A stretch of 32,000 nucleotides of DNA from Candidatus Saccharimonadota bacterium (GTDB lineage: Bacteria > Patescibacteriota > Gracilibacteria > Absconditabacterales > Absconditicoccaceae). This document shows positions 21,632 to 26,119 of the stretch, in pieces (position 1 is the stretch's first letter; every line of letters begins with the position of its first letter). The notes beneath the pieces are model-generated. The model did no database searches, was not told the origin of the DNA, and worked only from the letters and a program-made list of their open reading frames with translations. Made by a program: the position numbers and the translations under genes. Where the stretch lies: assembly GCA_965231145.1 (NCBI GenBank), contig OZ246420.1:240001-272000 (forward strand). Direction: 5' to 3'.

Positions 21632-22396
21632 CTAATTTTTACCTATGTTCTCTCGTAATGTGTCAAATAAAAGGCTTTGTACCTGAAAAAAGATAGGATT
21701 GTTGACTTCAATTGCGACTAATTGTTCGCCATAAGCTATATGAAAATATGTATCATCAATAAGACAATTAGATGACTTTATGCCTTTGGTTGACTTAAGA
21801 AACCTCGTCTCATAGTTTTTCTTTTTGATCATTTTAGTTTTCTCTTTTACATACTCGCGAGCTTTTGGGGTATCAATAAGTATCTCTCTGTAATGTCACT
21901 TATTCTTCGCAAATTCTTTGACTAATTCTTTTGTCGTTCGTCATGTAAATTTTAGTATGGCGTCAATATCTGTGAGGTAGCGTTTCTCTTTTCCTTCATG
22001 CGTTTTGTCATAAAGGATGCCTATGCTTTCTTCTCATTCATAGTATTTTATTTTTGGTAGAGCTTTATTGAGATGTATGTTTTCTAGTAATGTTGGTTTG
22101 ATGTCTTCAACTTTCTGTATGAGATCCTCATAGGTATTCCTTTTTTTCTGTAGGAGTGAAATAATCTCGTCTGGTGTGATGCTGCTATAGTAGTTACCCT
22201 GAGTTCCTTTTGTAGCTATCAGGAAATTTTTTATTTTCATCTTTTCGACATATCCGTGAATAGTCGATCTAGGCAGTCATACAAATCTTGTGATTCCTGT
22301 GACAGAAAGTCTGCCATATTTTTGGCAAAGAAGGAAGATTTTTCTTTCAACGTCATCTAATCAGACGTCCGATAATATTGTTTCCATGGTGTCCAT
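21632..22396 (-). CDS. TrmB-like winged-helix transcriptional regulator, 254 aa (5 TGA-Gly)
   Basis: The N-terminal LSDVGLDDVERKIFLLCQKYGRLSVTGITRFVGLPRSTIHGYVEKM is a wHTH. ORFs 22034-22240 and 21632-21832 share a frame and are joined through TGA. Confidence 0.6.
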
Positions 22397-22467
22397 ATTT
22401 TTTGATAGAAAATGATAAATAATATTTAATAATGCATAATAATTATATTAAAAAGCTTTATTTGTGC

Positions 22468-22500
22468 AATATTTATTGTCGAAATTCGCCGACAAATATT
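22468..22500. promoter_or_regulatory. imperfect inverted repeat (candidate operator) in a divergent promoter region
   Basis: AATATTT-AT-TGTCG (22468-22481) pairs with CGACAAATATT (22490-22500). It lies between the TrmB-like gene and the methyltransferase gene. Confidence 0.35.
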
Positions 22501-22569
22501 CGTACTATTGACTTACAATGCAAATTACTTCCGCTATGATTTCTGCGCTTTATATTATATGAAACTTAT

Positions 22570-23265
22570 ATGCAGACAGATTATAATCTCATCGCTAAGG
22601 AGTTCTCGGGTTATAAAAGTACTGAAAAAACAGAAAATATTGGATATGGCAAGCTTGTTGAGCTTGTCGGAGAATGCTCACGCAAGAAAATACTTGACTA
22701 TGGGTGTGGAAGCGGTGTTATTGCTGCAGTCTTATCTGCAAAATGAGCTGATCTTATGGGTGTCGATATTTCATCCAATCTTATTAAAATAGCTCAAGAC
22801 AATGTGCCAGGAGTGCCTTTTGAGCTCATTGACTCGAAAGCTCCCTTTGCAAATATAAAAAAGGAGCTTTTTGATGTGATTACTATGAATTATGTCCTCT
22901 GTGTTCTTCCTAAAGAAGAGGAGATTCAAAAGATTATTTCGGGAGCGCATACTTCGTTACACAAATGATGAAAACTTTATATACAAAACGCTAACTGGGA
23001 TAAAGCTAATGGAGCTGATTTTATGTCTTATAAGCTTCATTTTAAAGATAATTTGCAAGATGGCGATAAAATTTTTGTAACACTAAAGCTTGATCATCCG
23101 CTGGAAATTGAAGACTATTTTTTCTCCCAAGAAACGTACAAGAAGTGGCTCTATGAAATATGATTTTCTCATGTTGTCGTGCATGAACTGTATGGAAAAA
23201 AAGAAGATGGACGGGAAGAGGAATTCCGTACATCTCCTTGTTATATTATAGAAGCTATTAAATAA
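22570..23265 (+). CDS. class I SAM-dependent methyltransferase, 231 aa (4 TGA-Gly, including a TGATGA pair)
   Basis: Motif I is ILDYGCGSGVIAAVLSAKGADLMGVDIS. The post-I/II region is DVITMNYVL. LHK-GG-KLYI is encoded by TGA TGA at 22966-22971. Ends TAA. Confidence 0.8.
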
Positions 23266-23266
23266 T

Positions 23267-24082
23267 TTATCTCATAGACTTTTGTATCTTTGCCTTCATC
23301 TTTTTCGCATGCTCAGGGGAGTAGATGAGTTTCAGAGAGCAAGGAGCTTTCATCTTGAGTACCTGGCAGAAGAGATCTTTTTTGTAGCCTTCGACTCAAA
23401 GGATCGAGTTAAAGAAAAGAGAGAAATGTTCGCTGAGTCATGTCGGCAGCATGCATTCTACGATATAGTCTCCGATGATGTCGACAGAATATCCTTCTTG
23501 AGGAAACGGTGTATCGTTGACGCACTTTGTCGTGAAATAGTGCTTTGATAGCTGATCGGCTCCGTGTCTGTCGAGAAATGTGGTATTTCCTATAAGCATC
23601 TGTGATTTTTCTTCTGCGTTGGCGATCTCTTCCATATTAGTAACTTCTTTATCGGGTGTTCAGAGGATATAATAGGGGTGCGATGTATAGTGATATGCTG
23701 GCGATCATGGATTCATTTTTATCAGCTGACAGAGTAAATCCATACGGATGACATTGAGATCATAGAGGTTTGACTCTTCTCGCGTTTCTTGTTGTCCGGG
23801 CGCAAGTTTTTGCAGCACATTTACTTCTTCGCCCTGATAGACTTTCTGGCTGTCTTCGCTGAGGCCAAAGATGTAACGCATGAAGAGTGCATGCAGCTGA
23901 ACTTTTCATCTTGGCTTGACCAGTATCTGATCGTCAATCATATGTGCAATGATCTTATAGAAGTTGGGAAGTGAGATCGTGACTCATTTTTCCATCAGAT
24001 ACTTGTGCAGGGACTGGACAGAATGATCTTTTTGCTTTGCAACGACGCCAATAACAGCGTAAGGAATGCTTGCACGAAACAT
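23267..24082 (-). CDS. wHTH regulator-like protein, paralog 1, 271 aa (6 TGA-Gly)
   Basis: Translated from the minus strand: MFRASIPYAVIGVVAKQKD..ISLPNFYKIIAHMIDDQILVK..SHPYYILG..IIGDYIVECMLP..LIYSPEHAKKMKAKIQ. It has the same length as the neighbouring gene and roughly 45% identity to it by eye. Confidence 0.55.
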
Positions 24083-24201: not shown

Positions 24202-25017
24202 TTACTTAAAAAACTTTTTAATCTTTGCTTTCATCTTCCTCGCGTGTTCAGGGGAGTAGATGATTTTTAGGGATGAGCCTTCTTTCATCTTGATGAGATG
24301 GCTGAACATCTCGACGTTAAATCATTCAAATGATTTAACCGTATCAAAGAAGATTTTATAGTGCTCCGTGATGGTGGTAGGAAAGGTGCATTCTATGATG
24401 TAATCGCCGATGATGTTGATGCAGTATCATTCCTCCGGGAACGGAGGGTTGTCTATGCATGCAATGGTGTATCACTTCATGCTGAGAAGTTCGCTACCGT
24501 AGTGATCGAGAAATGTTTTATTTCAGAAAAGAAAATATGATTTTTCTAAGCTTCATCAGATGTCTTCCATATTTGCTTTCTCTTTATTGGGGATGCTTAA
24601 GATGTGATACGGATGAGAGTTGTAGTAAAAACCTTCTTCACCCGGATGTTCTTTTACCAATTGTCAAAGGAGATCCATCCATATTACATCAAGATCGTAC
24701 AAACTTGGGGCAGTGAAGACCTGCTGTTCTCCAGACTGTAGATTGCTAATTTTATAGCTTGTGTCTGAGAAGTATGTTTCTTGTACGCTATTTGCCAATC
24801 CAATAATGTAATGAAGATACATTGCGTGAATTTGAAGTTTCCCTTTTGATTTTACAAGGATCTGATGATCGATCATACGTCCAATAATTTTATAGAAATT
24901 TGGAAGTGATACTTTCATGTTCTTCTCCGTAATACGAGCATATAATTCTTGCATGCTCAGATCTTTGCTTTCAGCAAGGCAGGTGATAACTGCATGATCT
25001 ATATCTATGCGAAACAT
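24202..25017 (-). CDS. wHTH regulator-like protein, paralog 2, 271 aa (7 TGA-Gly)
   Basis: ORF 24664-25017 continues through TGA: ..WMDLL-G-QLVKEHPGEEGFYYNSHPYHILS..IIGDYIIECTFP..IIYSPEHARKMKAKIKKFFK*. Ends TAA at 24202-24204. Confidence 0.55.
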
Positions 25018-25083
25018 GGTAAGGAGGCTACAAATTAAATTTATCCATTTGTGATAATTTCATCTTAACTTTTCTCAAATCTA

Positions 25084-25111
25084 TTGCAAATGAAAATACT
25101 GCCAGTATAAC
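25084..25111 (+). promoter_or_regulatory. sigma70-like promoter candidate TTGCAA-16 nt-TATAAC upstream of AdoMetDC-like gene 1
   Basis: -35 TTGCAA at 25084-25089 and -10 TATAAC at 25106-25111. The -35 sits inside a 13-mer (ATCTATTGCAAAT, 25079-25091) that recurs at 25646-25658. Confidence 0.35.
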
Positions 25112-25208: not shown

Positions 25209-25583
25209 GTGCATCACCACTTTCTTTATTATGCTGTTGTATGACGTACAGATACGGATGCCGAAAAAGCAACACAGACAATCTTGGAAGAATTTCTTTC
25301 TCGTCTGGTTGCTTTTTTAGATATGCATGATACGAGTGATAAATATATTACGTATGATGATGTCCATCACGTGCGAATAGGGAGAGTAGTAGATAGTCTT
25401 TCTCATGCTATCTTTCATTATCATCTGGCTACGGGTATTATACAGATAGATATGTATAGCAACTATCCTTATGAGAAGGAGCACATTAAAGCTTTCTTTG
25501 GAGAGTTCTGGCAGGCGAAAAAGCTAGATTTCCTTTGTATCGATAAACATGGGCGAAACAAGAGGCTAGGATGATGTCTATAG
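25209..25583 (+). CDS. S-adenosylmethionine decarboxylase-like (pyruvoyl-enzyme fold) small protein, paralog 1, about 124 aa; start uncertain
   Basis: VHHHFLYYAVVGR..ILEEFLSRLVAFL..RVVDSLSHAIFHYH..IQIDMYSNYPYE aligns with the downstream paralog and with the SpeH-type pattern (ESH..H..iD.f.C). There is no in-frame ATG, so GTG at 25209 is the best start. It reads through TGA to TAG at 25581-25583. Confidence 0.45.
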
Positions 25584-25723
25584 ACATCGTTTTTATTGTA
25601 TGTAAGATTATCTGAAATTGAGAAATAGTATAGATGATTGTTTATATCTATTGCAAATATTTTCAGGAAATATAAAAAGGGCTCTACTAGCAAACCAAAA
25701 AAAACAAAAGTAAAACATGAGTT

Positions 25724-26119
25724 ATGAACAACACATTAGTGCATCATCATCTACTGTTCTATGCAACAGTAGGAAGGCAAGATCTGACGCCTGAGTCAGG
25801 TGCGGAAACTATACTAGTACAGTTCTTAGATGGGCTAGTGAGTTTCTTACAGATGAAAAAACTTATAGAGCCGATTGTGCTCTATTATGAAAGTAATGAT
25901 GCCTATACAGGCATTGTCGTTATTGCAACTTCGCACATTGCATTTCACTATTTCCGAAAAGAGCAGTTTATCCAAATGGATATCTACTCATGTAAGCCGT
26001 ATGACAAAGAAGCAACACTAACCTACTGTCTATCTTTTTGGAAAGGCAAGCTAGTTGATAGTGTCTTCATGGACAGGCTTACACAAACCGGACAGATCGC
26101 AGTGTCTACAACATCTTAA
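25724..26119 (+). CDS. S-adenosylmethionine decarboxylase-like (pyruvoyl-enzyme fold) small protein, paralog 2, 131 aa
   Basis: LVHHHLLFYATVG..GIVVIATSHIAFHYFRKEQFIQMDIYSCKPYD resembles the class-1 AdoMetDC (SpeH) core GvvviSESHltiHTwPE..iDvftCg. Intact ORF ending TAA. Confidence 0.5.
   Translation: MNNTLVHHHLLFYATVGRQDLTPESGAETILVQFLDGLVSFLQMKKLIEPIVLYYESNDAYTGIVVIATSHIAFHYFRKEQFIQMDIYSCKPYDKEATLTYCLSFWKGKLVDSVFMDRLTQTGQIAVSTTS

Follow-up and report, generated by a model that had tools for sequence, protein, structure and literature searches.

The window, the 32,000-nucleotide stretch of DNA analysed here, belongs to a 1.1-Mb UGA-recoded genome (genetic code 25, TGA=Gly). It carries two small adjacent genes on the plus strand, which we call paralog 1 (upstream) and paralog 2, separated by a 140-bp gap. 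The features of the locus are as follows.

23267..24082, minus strand: W2, tandem paralog of W1 (271 aa, 49% identical to W1)
24202..25017, minus strand: W1, TrmB/TrmBL2-like regulator with a winged helix, a linker helix and a PLD-like domain (271 aa), divergent from paralog 1
25079..25111, plus strand: promoter-like site of paralog 1, with the 13-mer ATCTATTGCAAAT, TTGCAA at 25084-25089, a 16-nt spacer and TATAAC
25209..25583, plus strand: paralog 1 (124 aa from a GTG start, with two TGA codons read as Gly), a degenerate protein of the SpeD/AdoMetDC fold
25568..25593, plus strand: terminator-like hairpin with an 11-pair stem and a T-rich tail, overlapping the paralog 1 stop codon (from a consensus scan only)
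25646..25678, plus strand: promoter-like site of paralog 2, with the identical 13-mer ATCTATTGCAAAT, TTGCAA at 25651-25656, then an A/T-rich -10-like hexamer
25724..26119, plus strand: paralog 2 (131 aa, ATG start), apparently intact proenzyme of a pyruvoyl decarboxylase from an uncharacterised clade of SpeD homologs

Both paralogs are full-length under code 25, and the frame of paralog 1 is open under this code only. The GTG at 25209 is its sole canonical start past the upstream stop, and an in-frame TGA (25242-25244) encodes the conserved glycine of the clade's VG motif. Because a second TGA near the C-terminus is also read under code 25, the gene ends at 25583 rather than 25574. A table 11 reading, which cuts paralog 1 to a TTG start at 25284 and an end at 25574, was dropped in favour of code 25. 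Paralog 1 adjoins a second copy in 3/3 genomes: the one analysed here (G000) and its sister genomes G001 and G002. In all three, a stop codon, 140 bp of spacer and another promoter-like site lie between the two genes, and the pair is not a SpeD-SpeD fusion (SpeD1SpeD2 type), which has two domains in one polypeptide.

Paralog 2 matches PF02675 with 46.7 bits (E=4.5e-12; Pfam gathering threshold 25 bits) and aligns to the crystal structures 2iii and 1tlu. Paralog 1 alone falls below every Pfam threshold, with no PF02675 match. We place it in the family because it shares 36% identity with paralog 2 over the full length, ungapped (BLASTP, E=1e-27), and scores 138 bits against the clade profile, of which it is itself a member. 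Its predicted model (pLDDT 89.5) has its best structural matches in 2iii, 1vr7, 1tlu and 1tmi (TM 0.61-0.66). Both proteins are class-1b AdoMetDC/SpeD-fold proteins, the fold of paralog 1 being taken from the model and that of paralog 2 from sequence. A preliminary description of this DNA had proposed two adjacent AdoMetDC-like paralogs, and this holds up: the similarity between the copies is far above chance and the paralog 1 model resembles AdoMetDC structures (2iii/1vr7/1tlu), although the profile search it suggested recovers paralog 2 only.

In Thermotoga maritima AdoMetDC, S63, H68 and C83 are essential for processing and catalysis (PMC10407285). Paralog 2, with the motifs TGIVVIATSHIAFHYF and MDIYSCKPYD, keeps the equivalents of Ser55 (as Thr), Ser63, His68 and Cys83, and departs from the clade consensus in 7 of 43 conserved columns. 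The residue test for bona fide SpeD (Ser63, His68, Cys83) thus finds all three residues in paralog 2, while paralog 1 fails it. In paralog 1 (SLSHAIFHYH and IDMYSNYPYE), the Ser-His and the second His are kept, Asn stands at the Cys83-equivalent and Ile at the Ser55-equivalent, and the conserved Glu is gone. The motifs, the Asn for Cys and the missing ATG had all been read correctly in the preliminary description. It had also counted the loss of the Glu preceding the cleaved Ser as a shared defect; this Glu is indeed absent from both proteins, but its absence is a trait of the whole clade and hence no mark of degeneration. The residue before the Ser is Thr in paralog 2, as is the rule clade-wide, and Leu in paralog 1.

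Across the paralog-1 orthologs, the decay goes further. The Cys83-equivalent is replaced in all four full-length sequences (N, A, A, M), no alternative Cys is conserved across them, and the pyruvoyl Ser is replaced by Ala or Val in two of the four (G001 and G002); the orthologs of G000 and P0062 still have the Ser-His and second His. In total, 20-24 of the 43 clade-conserved positions are altered in this lineage. The Ser loss is visible in the sister genomes only and is firmer evidence than the preliminary description had. Paralog 1 of G001 has also lost its His68- and Ser55-equivalents, which, from human and T. maritima equivalences, we take to be the residues donated in trans.

Despite these losses, the paralog 1 ORF is intact in G000, G001, G002 and P0062, with a nearly gapless alignment. 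The chance of 124 codons staying free of stops is about 0.003 per lineage (by arithmetic from 39% GC), and the frame remains open across at least four lineages whose synonymous sites are near saturation. Values of pN (0.29-0.39) lie well below those of pS (0.61-0.70), giving a dN/dS of about 0.24-0.34. Three paralog-1 orthologs share 39 invariant columns, including HHH, G58, H66, Q79, D81, Y83, S84 and a lineage-specific K-H. Given the residue losses together with the open frame, pN below pS and a conserved promoter-like site, the sequences identify paralog 1 as a maintained pseudoenzyme. Like a prozyme, it is a paralog without catalytic/processing residues under purifying selection. The idea of an enzyme with a dead paralog therefore survives in its second half, as paralog 1 is degenerate yet kept, and the signs are against an untranslated pseudogene.

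In the tree, G000 paralog 2 groups with the paralog-1 orthologs (support 95/98), with a short branch for paralog 2 (0.21) and a long paralog-1 stem, and the AU test does not reject a tree that unites all six genus copies in one clade (p=0.41). On this phylogeny, the pair goes back to a tandem duplication at genus level, after which paralog 1 evolved at an accelerated rate. In G001 and G002, the second gene has diverged to an extreme degree (29-37% identity); that of G001 has no Pfam match and that of G002 scores 20.1 bits, under the Pfam cut-off. Both lack Gly56, His64 and Asp79 and may be inactive altogether. The clade-specific polar residues HHH, H66, Q79, D81 and Y83 are kept in paralog 1 and lost in these second genes. 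We considered complementary degeneration as a sign of an obligate heterodimer, but a complementary split of residues between the paralogs is unsupported over all 43 columns (Fisher p=0.20 and 0.83), with p=0.012 in one post hoc subset.

The 23 loci of the species collection hold no other tandem or degenerate copies, and no other adjacent copies occur in 401 class genomes. Searching 1.84 billion representatives with a paralog-1 profile returned 14 matches, none further tandem or degenerate except two close relatives. The pair is thus known from one genus and two metagenomic relatives only.

The 13-mer ATCTATTGCAAAT occurs twice in the 1.1-Mb genome, once ahead of each paralog, and in G001 and G002, TTGCAA-N16-TAnAnn recurs 5' of each of the two genes. 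The consensus scan found 4 terminator-like sites against 0.7 expected in shuffles, and Rfam showed neither a riboswitch nor any other known RNA near the two genes at E<=1. The W1 model (pLDDT 90) has its top Foldseek matches in TrmBL2 (5bpd/5bpi, E about 1e-8) and TrmB (3qph), and W1 has no Pfam family. W1 and W2 are both syntenic in G001 and G002, and W1 homologs adjoin a gene of the SpeD-like clade in nine loci, including other phyla. No candidate partner other than these TrmB-like genes recurs among the clade's neighbours.

What the pair might decarboxylate is less easily read from the genome. Against TIGR03330, the AdoMetDC equivalog model, paralog 2 reaches 32.7 bits, below the cut-off of 75.65. 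Its motif T-S-H...H-Y-F-R-K-E lacks the conserved Pro of the E-S-H...H-T-W-P-E of bona fide SpeD, although the validated phiYS40 SpeD likewise lacks it. The only Spermine_synth-like gene in the genome encodes a fused MFS protein (NF037959, 149 bits), which aligns GAAG to the GGGD and DAYIG to the DSTDP of true SpeE, so the check for a spermidine synthase yields one such gene, but without the hallmark acidic residues. We rejected a SpeD+SpeE pathway on these grounds and because the MFS/SpdSyn and SpeD-like genes are uncoupled over 61 relatives, nine of which have the former without any SpeD-like gene. No SAM synthetase (MetK, either type) was found in the genome, nor were arginase/agmatinase, agmatine deiminase, DHS, PLP ODC/ADC or saccharopine-dehydrogenase-type CASDH/HSS. 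Since TIGR03330 is below cut-off, no SAM synthetase was found and the spermidine-synthase-like gene lacks those acidic residues, AdoMetDC activity is doubtful. Candidate substrates are SAM or an amino acid taken up from outside, for example ornithine or arginine; ornithine supply via arginine deiminase/OTC was rejected, as neither gene was found in the genome.

We also rejected identity with the SpeDC ornithine decarboxylase. As far as Fig. S5 of Li et al. 2023 (PMC10407285) maps them, the SpeDC diagnostics are four residues of the central region (Gln, Thr, Phe, Tyr), and the validated domains there read Q-L-I-E-T-S-L-I-S-G-H-F...Y-L-D-I-F-S-C. The clade here reads W-T-G-I-V-G-I-I-T-S-H-I-A-F-H...Q-L-D-I-Y-S-C-K with an N-terminal V-H-H-H, and the Thr before the Ser alone is common to both sets of motifs. 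A true SpeDC-type gene occurs in a class-mate genome (G057). No clade member is among the characterised SpeD-homolog proteins we compared, and by its motifs the clade belongs to none of the characterised groups (SpeD, SpeDA, SpeDC). Elsewhere it is repeatedly fused with or adjacent to N-methyltransferases and next to a TrmB-like regulator; its longer forms are methyltransferase fusions only, with no double-domain form. The methyltransferase in the window (22432-23265) was discarded as an orthologue of the clade's fusion partner, as the generic SAM-binding loop alone matches.

The best explanation, to which we give slightly better than an even chance, is a duplicated pyruvoyl decarboxylase with paralog 2 as the enzyme and paralog 1 as a non-catalytic partner. 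An ancestor of this Absconditabacterales genus would have gained one small pyruvoyl decarboxylase gene of the SpeD/AdoMetDC fold, which duplicated in tandem. Paralog 2 would cleave itself at Thr-Ser to form the pyruvoyl group, using its His68 and Cys83 equivalents. Paralog 1 would have preserved its fold and beta-sheet face while losing first the Cys and later, in some species, the Ser, and selection would have retained it as a non-catalytic subunit. The two would join in a dimer that has one pyruvoyl site, its activity or stability tuned by paralog 1. With similar but separate promoter-like sites for the two genes, the ratio of the paralogs could be regulated, probably by the TrmB-like proteins. 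We infer that paralog 1 most likely pairs with paralog 2, because enzymes of this fold from bacteria are known to function only as dimers, face to face, in which both active sites reportedly draw residues from both chains. Dimerisation of the bacterial half-enzymes is through their beta-sheet faces (PMC5201418).

The signs of a heteromer are circumstantial, namely adjacency and a common promoter motif. Obligate subunits are typically tightly coupled, and the 140-bp gap, the hairpin after paralog 1 and the separate promoter-like sites speak against pairing, as does the absence of His68- and Ser55-equivalents from G001 paralog 1. The strong divergence of the second gene in G001 and in G002 makes its activity doubtful, which counts against the mechanism.

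Paralog 1 could instead be maintained independently of paralog 2, as a homodimer that binds a ligand or acts as a sensor, or as a dimerisation or scaffold module for some other partner. Its gene carries a separate promoter-like site and a terminator-like hairpin, the protein keeps clade-specific polar residues that the G001 and G002 second genes have lost, and its structural match to the N-domain of spermine synthase indicates that non-catalytic roles are possible for the fold. We nevertheless think this unlikely, given the strict adjacency to a second copy in 3/3 genomes, the identical 13-mer upstream of both genes and the lack of a recurring neighbour partner besides TrmB-like genes. More improbable by far is a pair of active decarboxylases that differ in substrate, as in the characterised SpeD plus SpeDC pairs, with paralog 1 relying on another residue as proton donor. 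SpeD homolog pairs with different substrates are documented (PMC10407285), and paralog 1 of G000 and P0062 retains Ser-His and the second His; but C83, reported to be essential, is replaced throughout the paralog-1 lineage, no alternative Cys is conserved, G001 and G002 have Ala or Val in place of the Ser, and about half of the clade-conserved positions (20-24/43) have changed. That paralog 1 is a functionless duplicate decaying into a pseudogene seems a shade less probable still. This would account for the fast evolution (39-51% identity across genomes, against 72-80% for neighbouring housekeeping genes), the stepwise loss of catalytic residues and the lack of an ATG start in G000, yet it sits poorly with a nearly gapless open frame in at least four lineages with near-saturated synonymous sites, pN well under pS, 39 invariant columns, a conserved promoter-like site and a confidently folded model.

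An enzyme with a non-catalytic partner looks like an unfused bacterial version of a known theme. The trypanosomatid AdoMetDC/prozyme heterodimer (PDB 5tvf, 5tvm; PMC5201418) also arose by duplication and has separately expressed partners, but the prozyme, reported in trypanosomatids only (PMC5201418), belongs to the eukaryotic class-2 (double-domain) proteins. Here, both partners are bacterial, single class-1b half-sandwiches, so a heterodimer would use the primary sheet-to-sheet interface that holds the active sites; the substrate is perhaps not SAM. Also bacterial are the SpeD-degraded-SpeDC fusions of Lentisphaerota (Victivallis vadensis WP_116885763) and Desulfobacterales (PMC10407285), in which an intact SpeD-homolog module is joined to a second module without Ser/His/Cys-type residues. 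These are single polypeptides with the degraded module C-terminal, encoded next to speE, whereas our pair consists of two genes with their own promoter-like sites, the degenerate copy first, no convincing speE, and both copies from one clade rather than SpeD plus SpeDC. The SpeDC (ornithine) and SpeDA (arginine) decarboxylases (PMC10407285, PMC9992855) resemble paralog 2 in being small class-1b proteins without a canonical SpeE partner and with a patchy, HGT-like spread in CPR, DPANN and methanogens; SpeDC and the HTVC201P ADC also have Thr before the cleaved Ser. The second-best match of the paralog 1 model is the AdoMetDC-like N-terminal domain of human spermine synthase (PDB 3c6k), a non-catalytic half-sandwich that is eukaryotic, fused to an aminopropyltransferase and has no adjacent active paralog. 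In spermine synthase it reportedly acts as a dimerisation domain.

To our knowledge, dead paralogs that regulate active twins are well documented in eukaryotes and rare in bacteria. Within this enzyme family, the only heteromeric example is the prozyme, described as restricted to trypanosomatids, and the bacterial examples are fused proteins. If our explanation is true, a two-gene form in a minimal genome would indicate that an active-plus-degenerate arrangement can precede fusion, with a bearing on the evolution of the eukaryotic double-domain enzyme. A bolder combination, which we regard as speculative and rather unlikely, takes the pair as an unfused intermediate between a homodimeric class-1b enzyme and a single-site pseudo-dimer (the eukaryotic AdoMetDC architecture), in which paralog 1 either makes up half of a composite active site or retains a remnant site for regulation, and the two proteins of G001 and of G002 depend on each other. 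It would also give the clade a new pyruvoyl decarboxylase activity alongside N-methyltransferases, outside classical polyamine synthesis, a proposal drawn from its recurrent class-I MTase and SET fusions. The clade's substrate may itself be new, because the clade falls outside SpeD/SpeDA/SpeDC and has recurrent methyltransferase fusions and a TrmB-like regulator. Should paralog 2 turn out to decarboxylate ornithine, arginine or SAM in the ordinary way, with no measurable effect of paralog 1, the pair would be a minor lineage-specific curiosity. At 124 and 131 residues, it would otherwise offer a small, tractable model of a pseudoenzyme tuning a self-processing enzyme.

Read with genetic code table 11 the region is fragmented, while table 25 gives long frames across the window; under table 25, the 501-aa Obg in the window carries four TGA codons and is matched full-length by GTP1_OBG/MMR_HSR1. 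The genome (G000) is closed, with a size of 1.107 Mb and a completeness rating of 99.2%; the window corresponds to G000:C1:240001-272000, and related loci assign it to Absconditabacterales/SR1. The two adjacent SpeD-like genes read as follows:

25209-25583, + strand: paralog 1, GTG start at 25209, TAG stop at 25581-25583, 124 aa, two TGA codons read as Gly
25724-26119, + strand: paralog 2, ATG start, 131 aa, no TGA codons

Between the upstream stop and 25209 there is no ATG, TTG or further GTG, leaving this GTG as the sole start found for paralog 1 and bearing out the preliminary description, in which the gene lacked an ATG start. Its first TGA is the conserved Gly in the V-G motif of the clade (the uncharacterised small SpeD-homologs that include both paralogs). 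In public gene calls, paralog-1-type proteins (P0044, 83 aa; P0064, 63 aa; P0062) are cut at TGA or have it as Trp. Because TGA truncates the protein or is read as Trp, this family is nearly invisible in databases of standard or table-4 calls.

At 46.7 bits, paralog 2 clears the PF02675 cut-off of 25; against TIGR03330, the B. subtilis-type equivalog, it reaches just 32.7 bits (cut-off 75.65). It aligns without gaps over the catalytic core with the Aquifex (2iii) and T. maritima (1tlu) enzymes, its Thr, Ser, His and Cys corresponding to Ser55, Ser63 (the pyruvoyl Ser), His68 and Cys83 in T. maritima. S63, H68 and C83 are essential for self-processing and catalysis there, according to PMC10407285. 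PF02675 membership, proposed for both proteins, held for paralog 2 only, as paralog 1 alone has no Pfam match. The proposed structural similarity was recovered for paralog 1: over 121 ungapped residues it shares 36% identity with paralog 2 (E=1e-27), and its AlphaFold2 model (28-row alignment, pLDDT 89.5) has the class-1b AdoMetDCs 2iii, 1vr7, 1tlu and 1tmi as best structural matches (TM 0.61-0.66).

About 43 close homologs of ~124 aa share V-H-H-H...W-T-G...T-S-H-I-A-F-H...E...Q-L-D-I-Y-S-C-K. The clade is single-copy in the species collection and has scattered members in Methanosarcinales, Woesearchaeota, Peribacteria, Saccharibacteria, Minisyncoccia, Kaiserbacteria and Absconditabacterales, as well as Planctomycetia, Zixibacteria and one Chitinophagaceae MAG; an outlying gammaproteobacterial group adjoins true speE (128 bits). 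The nearest characterised relatives among those compared are the HTVC201P arginine decarboxylase (E-T-S-H-I-A-F-H...Q-L-D-V-Y-T-C) and the bona fide AdoMetDC of phiYS40, each only ~30-33% identical. We also considered the SpeDC type and ruled it out, as the clade motif differs from that of the validated SpeDC domains in PMC10407285 (Q-L-I-E-T-S-L-I-S-G-H-F...Y-L-D-I-F-S-C). The SpeDC-type motif is found in G057, a genome of the same class as G000.

The adjacent pair, looked for in 61 relatives and afterwards in 401 genomes of the class, is confined to the window's genus (G000 and its sister genomes G001 and G002); outside it, strong clade members in these genomes are single genes in G020, G049 and G221 only. 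Gene order is conserved: a trigger-factor-like gene, the tandem TrmB-like genes W2 and W1, paralog 1, the second gene (the paralog 2 position), RlmH and Obg. In G000, a third TrmB-type wHTH gene (254 aa, -) and a class-I methyltransferase gene (277 aa, +) lie between the trigger-factor-like gene and W2 (21632-23265); since both are missing at that place in G001 and G002, this is a G000-specific insertion.

The paralog-1 orthologs of G001 (G-S-A-H-I-I-F-R-Y...Y-S-A-A) and G002 (G-G-V-H-A-I-V-H-Y...Y-S-A-S) have both lost the pyruvoyl Ser and the Cys, and that of G001 has also lost His68. Searching 1.84 billion representatives with a profile built from the three orthologs returned only 14 proteins: a fourth full-length paralog-1-type protein (P0062) that retains Ser-His and has Met for Cys, an N-terminal fragment of this type (P0064), and otherwise canonical clade members. 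The catalytic Cys, reported missing from paralog 1, is therefore replaced in all four full-length members (N, A, A and M in G000, G001, G002 and P0062).

Across the genus, identity is 72-80% for neighbouring housekeeping proteins, 55-70% for the W proteins and 39-51% for paralog 1. Synonymous sites are close to saturation (pS 0.6-0.9); for paralog 1, pN of 0.29-0.39 against pS of 0.61-0.70 gives a Nei-Gojobori dN/dS of 0.24-0.34, a figure based on three to four genomes whose synonymous sites are saturated. The three orthologs align nearly without gaps, with 39 invariant columns that include H-H-H, G58, H66, Q79, D81, Y83, S84 and a lineage-specific K-H near the C-terminus. By our own arithmetic, a random 124-codon frame at 39% GC would lack TAA and TAG with a chance of ~0.003. 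The only two genomic occurrences of the 13-mer ATCTATTGCAAAT are upstream of paralog 1 and of paralog 2, TTGCAA-N16-TAnAnn recurs 5' of both genes in G001 and G002, and a terminator-like hairpin overlaps the stop codon of paralog 1. From pN below pS, the invariant columns, the open frame, the conserved promoter-like site and the hairpin, we conclude that paralog 1 is probably expressed, from its own promoter-like site, and constrained.

The maximum-likelihood tree places G000 paralog 2, on a branch of 0.21, as sister (support 95/98) to the paralog-1 clade, whose stem measures 1.64; the G001 and G002 second genes form a long-branch pair of uncertain position. AU tests did not reject a single clade uniting all six copies of the genus (p=0.41) and disfavoured one for the three second genes only marginally (p=0.084). 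These results fit one acquisition and one tandem duplication, after which paralog 1 evolved faster and, later still, the second gene of G001 and G002 did so too. Of 62 clade members, at least 85% agree at each of 43 columns; there, G000 paralog 2 deviates 7 times, the paralog-1 orthologs 20-24 times and the G001/G002 second genes 25-27 times. The latter retain T55/S63/H68/C83 and lack two of the three N-terminal His, Gly56, His64, Gln77, Asp79 and Tyr81; paralog 1 has kept every one of these. This looks like complementary loss, but overall Fisher tests give no support (p=0.20 and 0.83; one post hoc subset, p=0.012), and we leave it out of the argument. The second genes of G001 (L006:2003-2491) and G002 (L007:1964-2422) share only 29-37% identity with G000 paralog 2 and with one another and, like canonical AdoMetDC, carry E-S and a Y-P motif; that of G001 has an insertion ahead of the Ser.

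A TrmB-like protein (family F1) neighbours the main clade in 9 loci, and the model of W1 (pLDDT 90) matches TrmBL2 and TrmB. A ~275-aa TrmB-like family without a Pfam model, modelled as a winged helix with a PLD-like domain, is encoded divergently, upstream of the clade gene, in L016, L022, L024, L026, L028 and L031; it spans bacteria and one Methanosarcinales archaeon and is tandemly duplicated in the window's genus (23267-24082 and 24202-25017, both -). In L016, L026 and L031 the clade gene has downstream of it a gene for a PrmA/MTS-like class-I methyltransferase that bears a D/N-L-P-W/Y motif; this enzyme is fused to the clade domain in L023 and 16 more database proteins (~350 aa). In L017, L021 and L022 a gene upstream of the clade gene encodes a 131-aa SET-domain protein, and L024 and P0049 carry the SET domain as a fusion. 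Other recurrent neighbours are a cupin, a CxxCxxCC protein and an ABC importer. These arrangements point to a pathway that the clade may share with N-methyltransferases; we found no description of one in the literature. In L023:5323-6375, L024:3625-4452, L016:2641-3420, L026:369-1049, L031:6432-7220, L017:2695-3090, L021:5214-5609 and P0045-P0061, the clade adjoins or is fused to SAM-dependent N-methyltransferases of two unrelated folds, class-I (16 fusions) and SET (two fusions).

The closed G000 genome yielded no SAM synthetase of the bacterial (PF02773) or the archaeal (PF01941) type, and SAM is presumably imported; several SAM-dependent methyltransferases are encoded all the same. Nor did we find in G000 arginase/agmatinase, agmatine deiminase, deoxyhypusine/homospermidine synthase, PLP-dependent Orn/Arg/DAP decarboxylase, saccharopine-dehydrogenase-type enzymes, OTC or arginine deiminase. 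Its sole Spermine_synth-like gene is:

G000:C1:1062280-1063788 (L002:1375-2883), - strand: fused MFS/spermidine-synthase protein (NF037959, 149 bits)

Compared with true SpeE, this protein has GAAG for GGGD and DAYIG for DSTDP. It occurs in 13 of the 61 relatives, nine of them without any SpeD-like gene, and five relatives with SpeD-like genes lack it. The search for a dcSAM user, suggested by the preliminary description, thus yielded one weak candidate lacking the acidic residues of GGGD and DSTDP; the substrate, whichever it is, must be imported. In our judgement, an amino-acid decarboxylase producing a diamine has about an even chance of being the activity, AdoMetDC activity is about half as probable, and the remaining weight falls on some other activity tied to the methyltransferases.

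Both active sites of the dimer reportedly draw residues from both chains, as Bale et al. described in 2010. Bacterial enzymes of the AdoMetDC fold are half-sandwich dimers joined via their beta-sheet faces (PMC5201418). Most simply, paralog 1 is a candidate non-catalytic dimer partner of paralog 2, because it keeps the fold and sheet residues and not the catalytic ones, adjoins paralog 2 and shares its promoter motif. Judging from sequence, paralog 2 would self-process as the intact copy, and paralog 1 would pair with it as the non-catalytic half. The prozyme is stated to occur in trypanosomatids only (PMC5201418), whereas this pair is bacterial. Bacterial SpeD-degraded-SpeDC fusions (PMC10407285) also join active and degenerate modules; in contrast to what is described there, the two copies here are separate genes from one clade, the degenerate one lying upstream. 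The active-plus-degenerate theme is thus already known, and what is new is a bacterial, unfused pair of single-clade origin with the degenerate copy first.

A fused analogue from a different subfamily, again with the degenerate half first, is found in G047 (L011:997-1764), where a 255-aa protein has two AdoMet_dc-like halves, the first without Cys. G057 has a typical SpeDC-type gene at the locus (L008:1357-1794 and 1816-2598). Downstream of the AdoMet_dc-like gene, both genomes encode a Cys-rich (zinc-ribbon-like) protein, homologous between the two, and a membrane protein.
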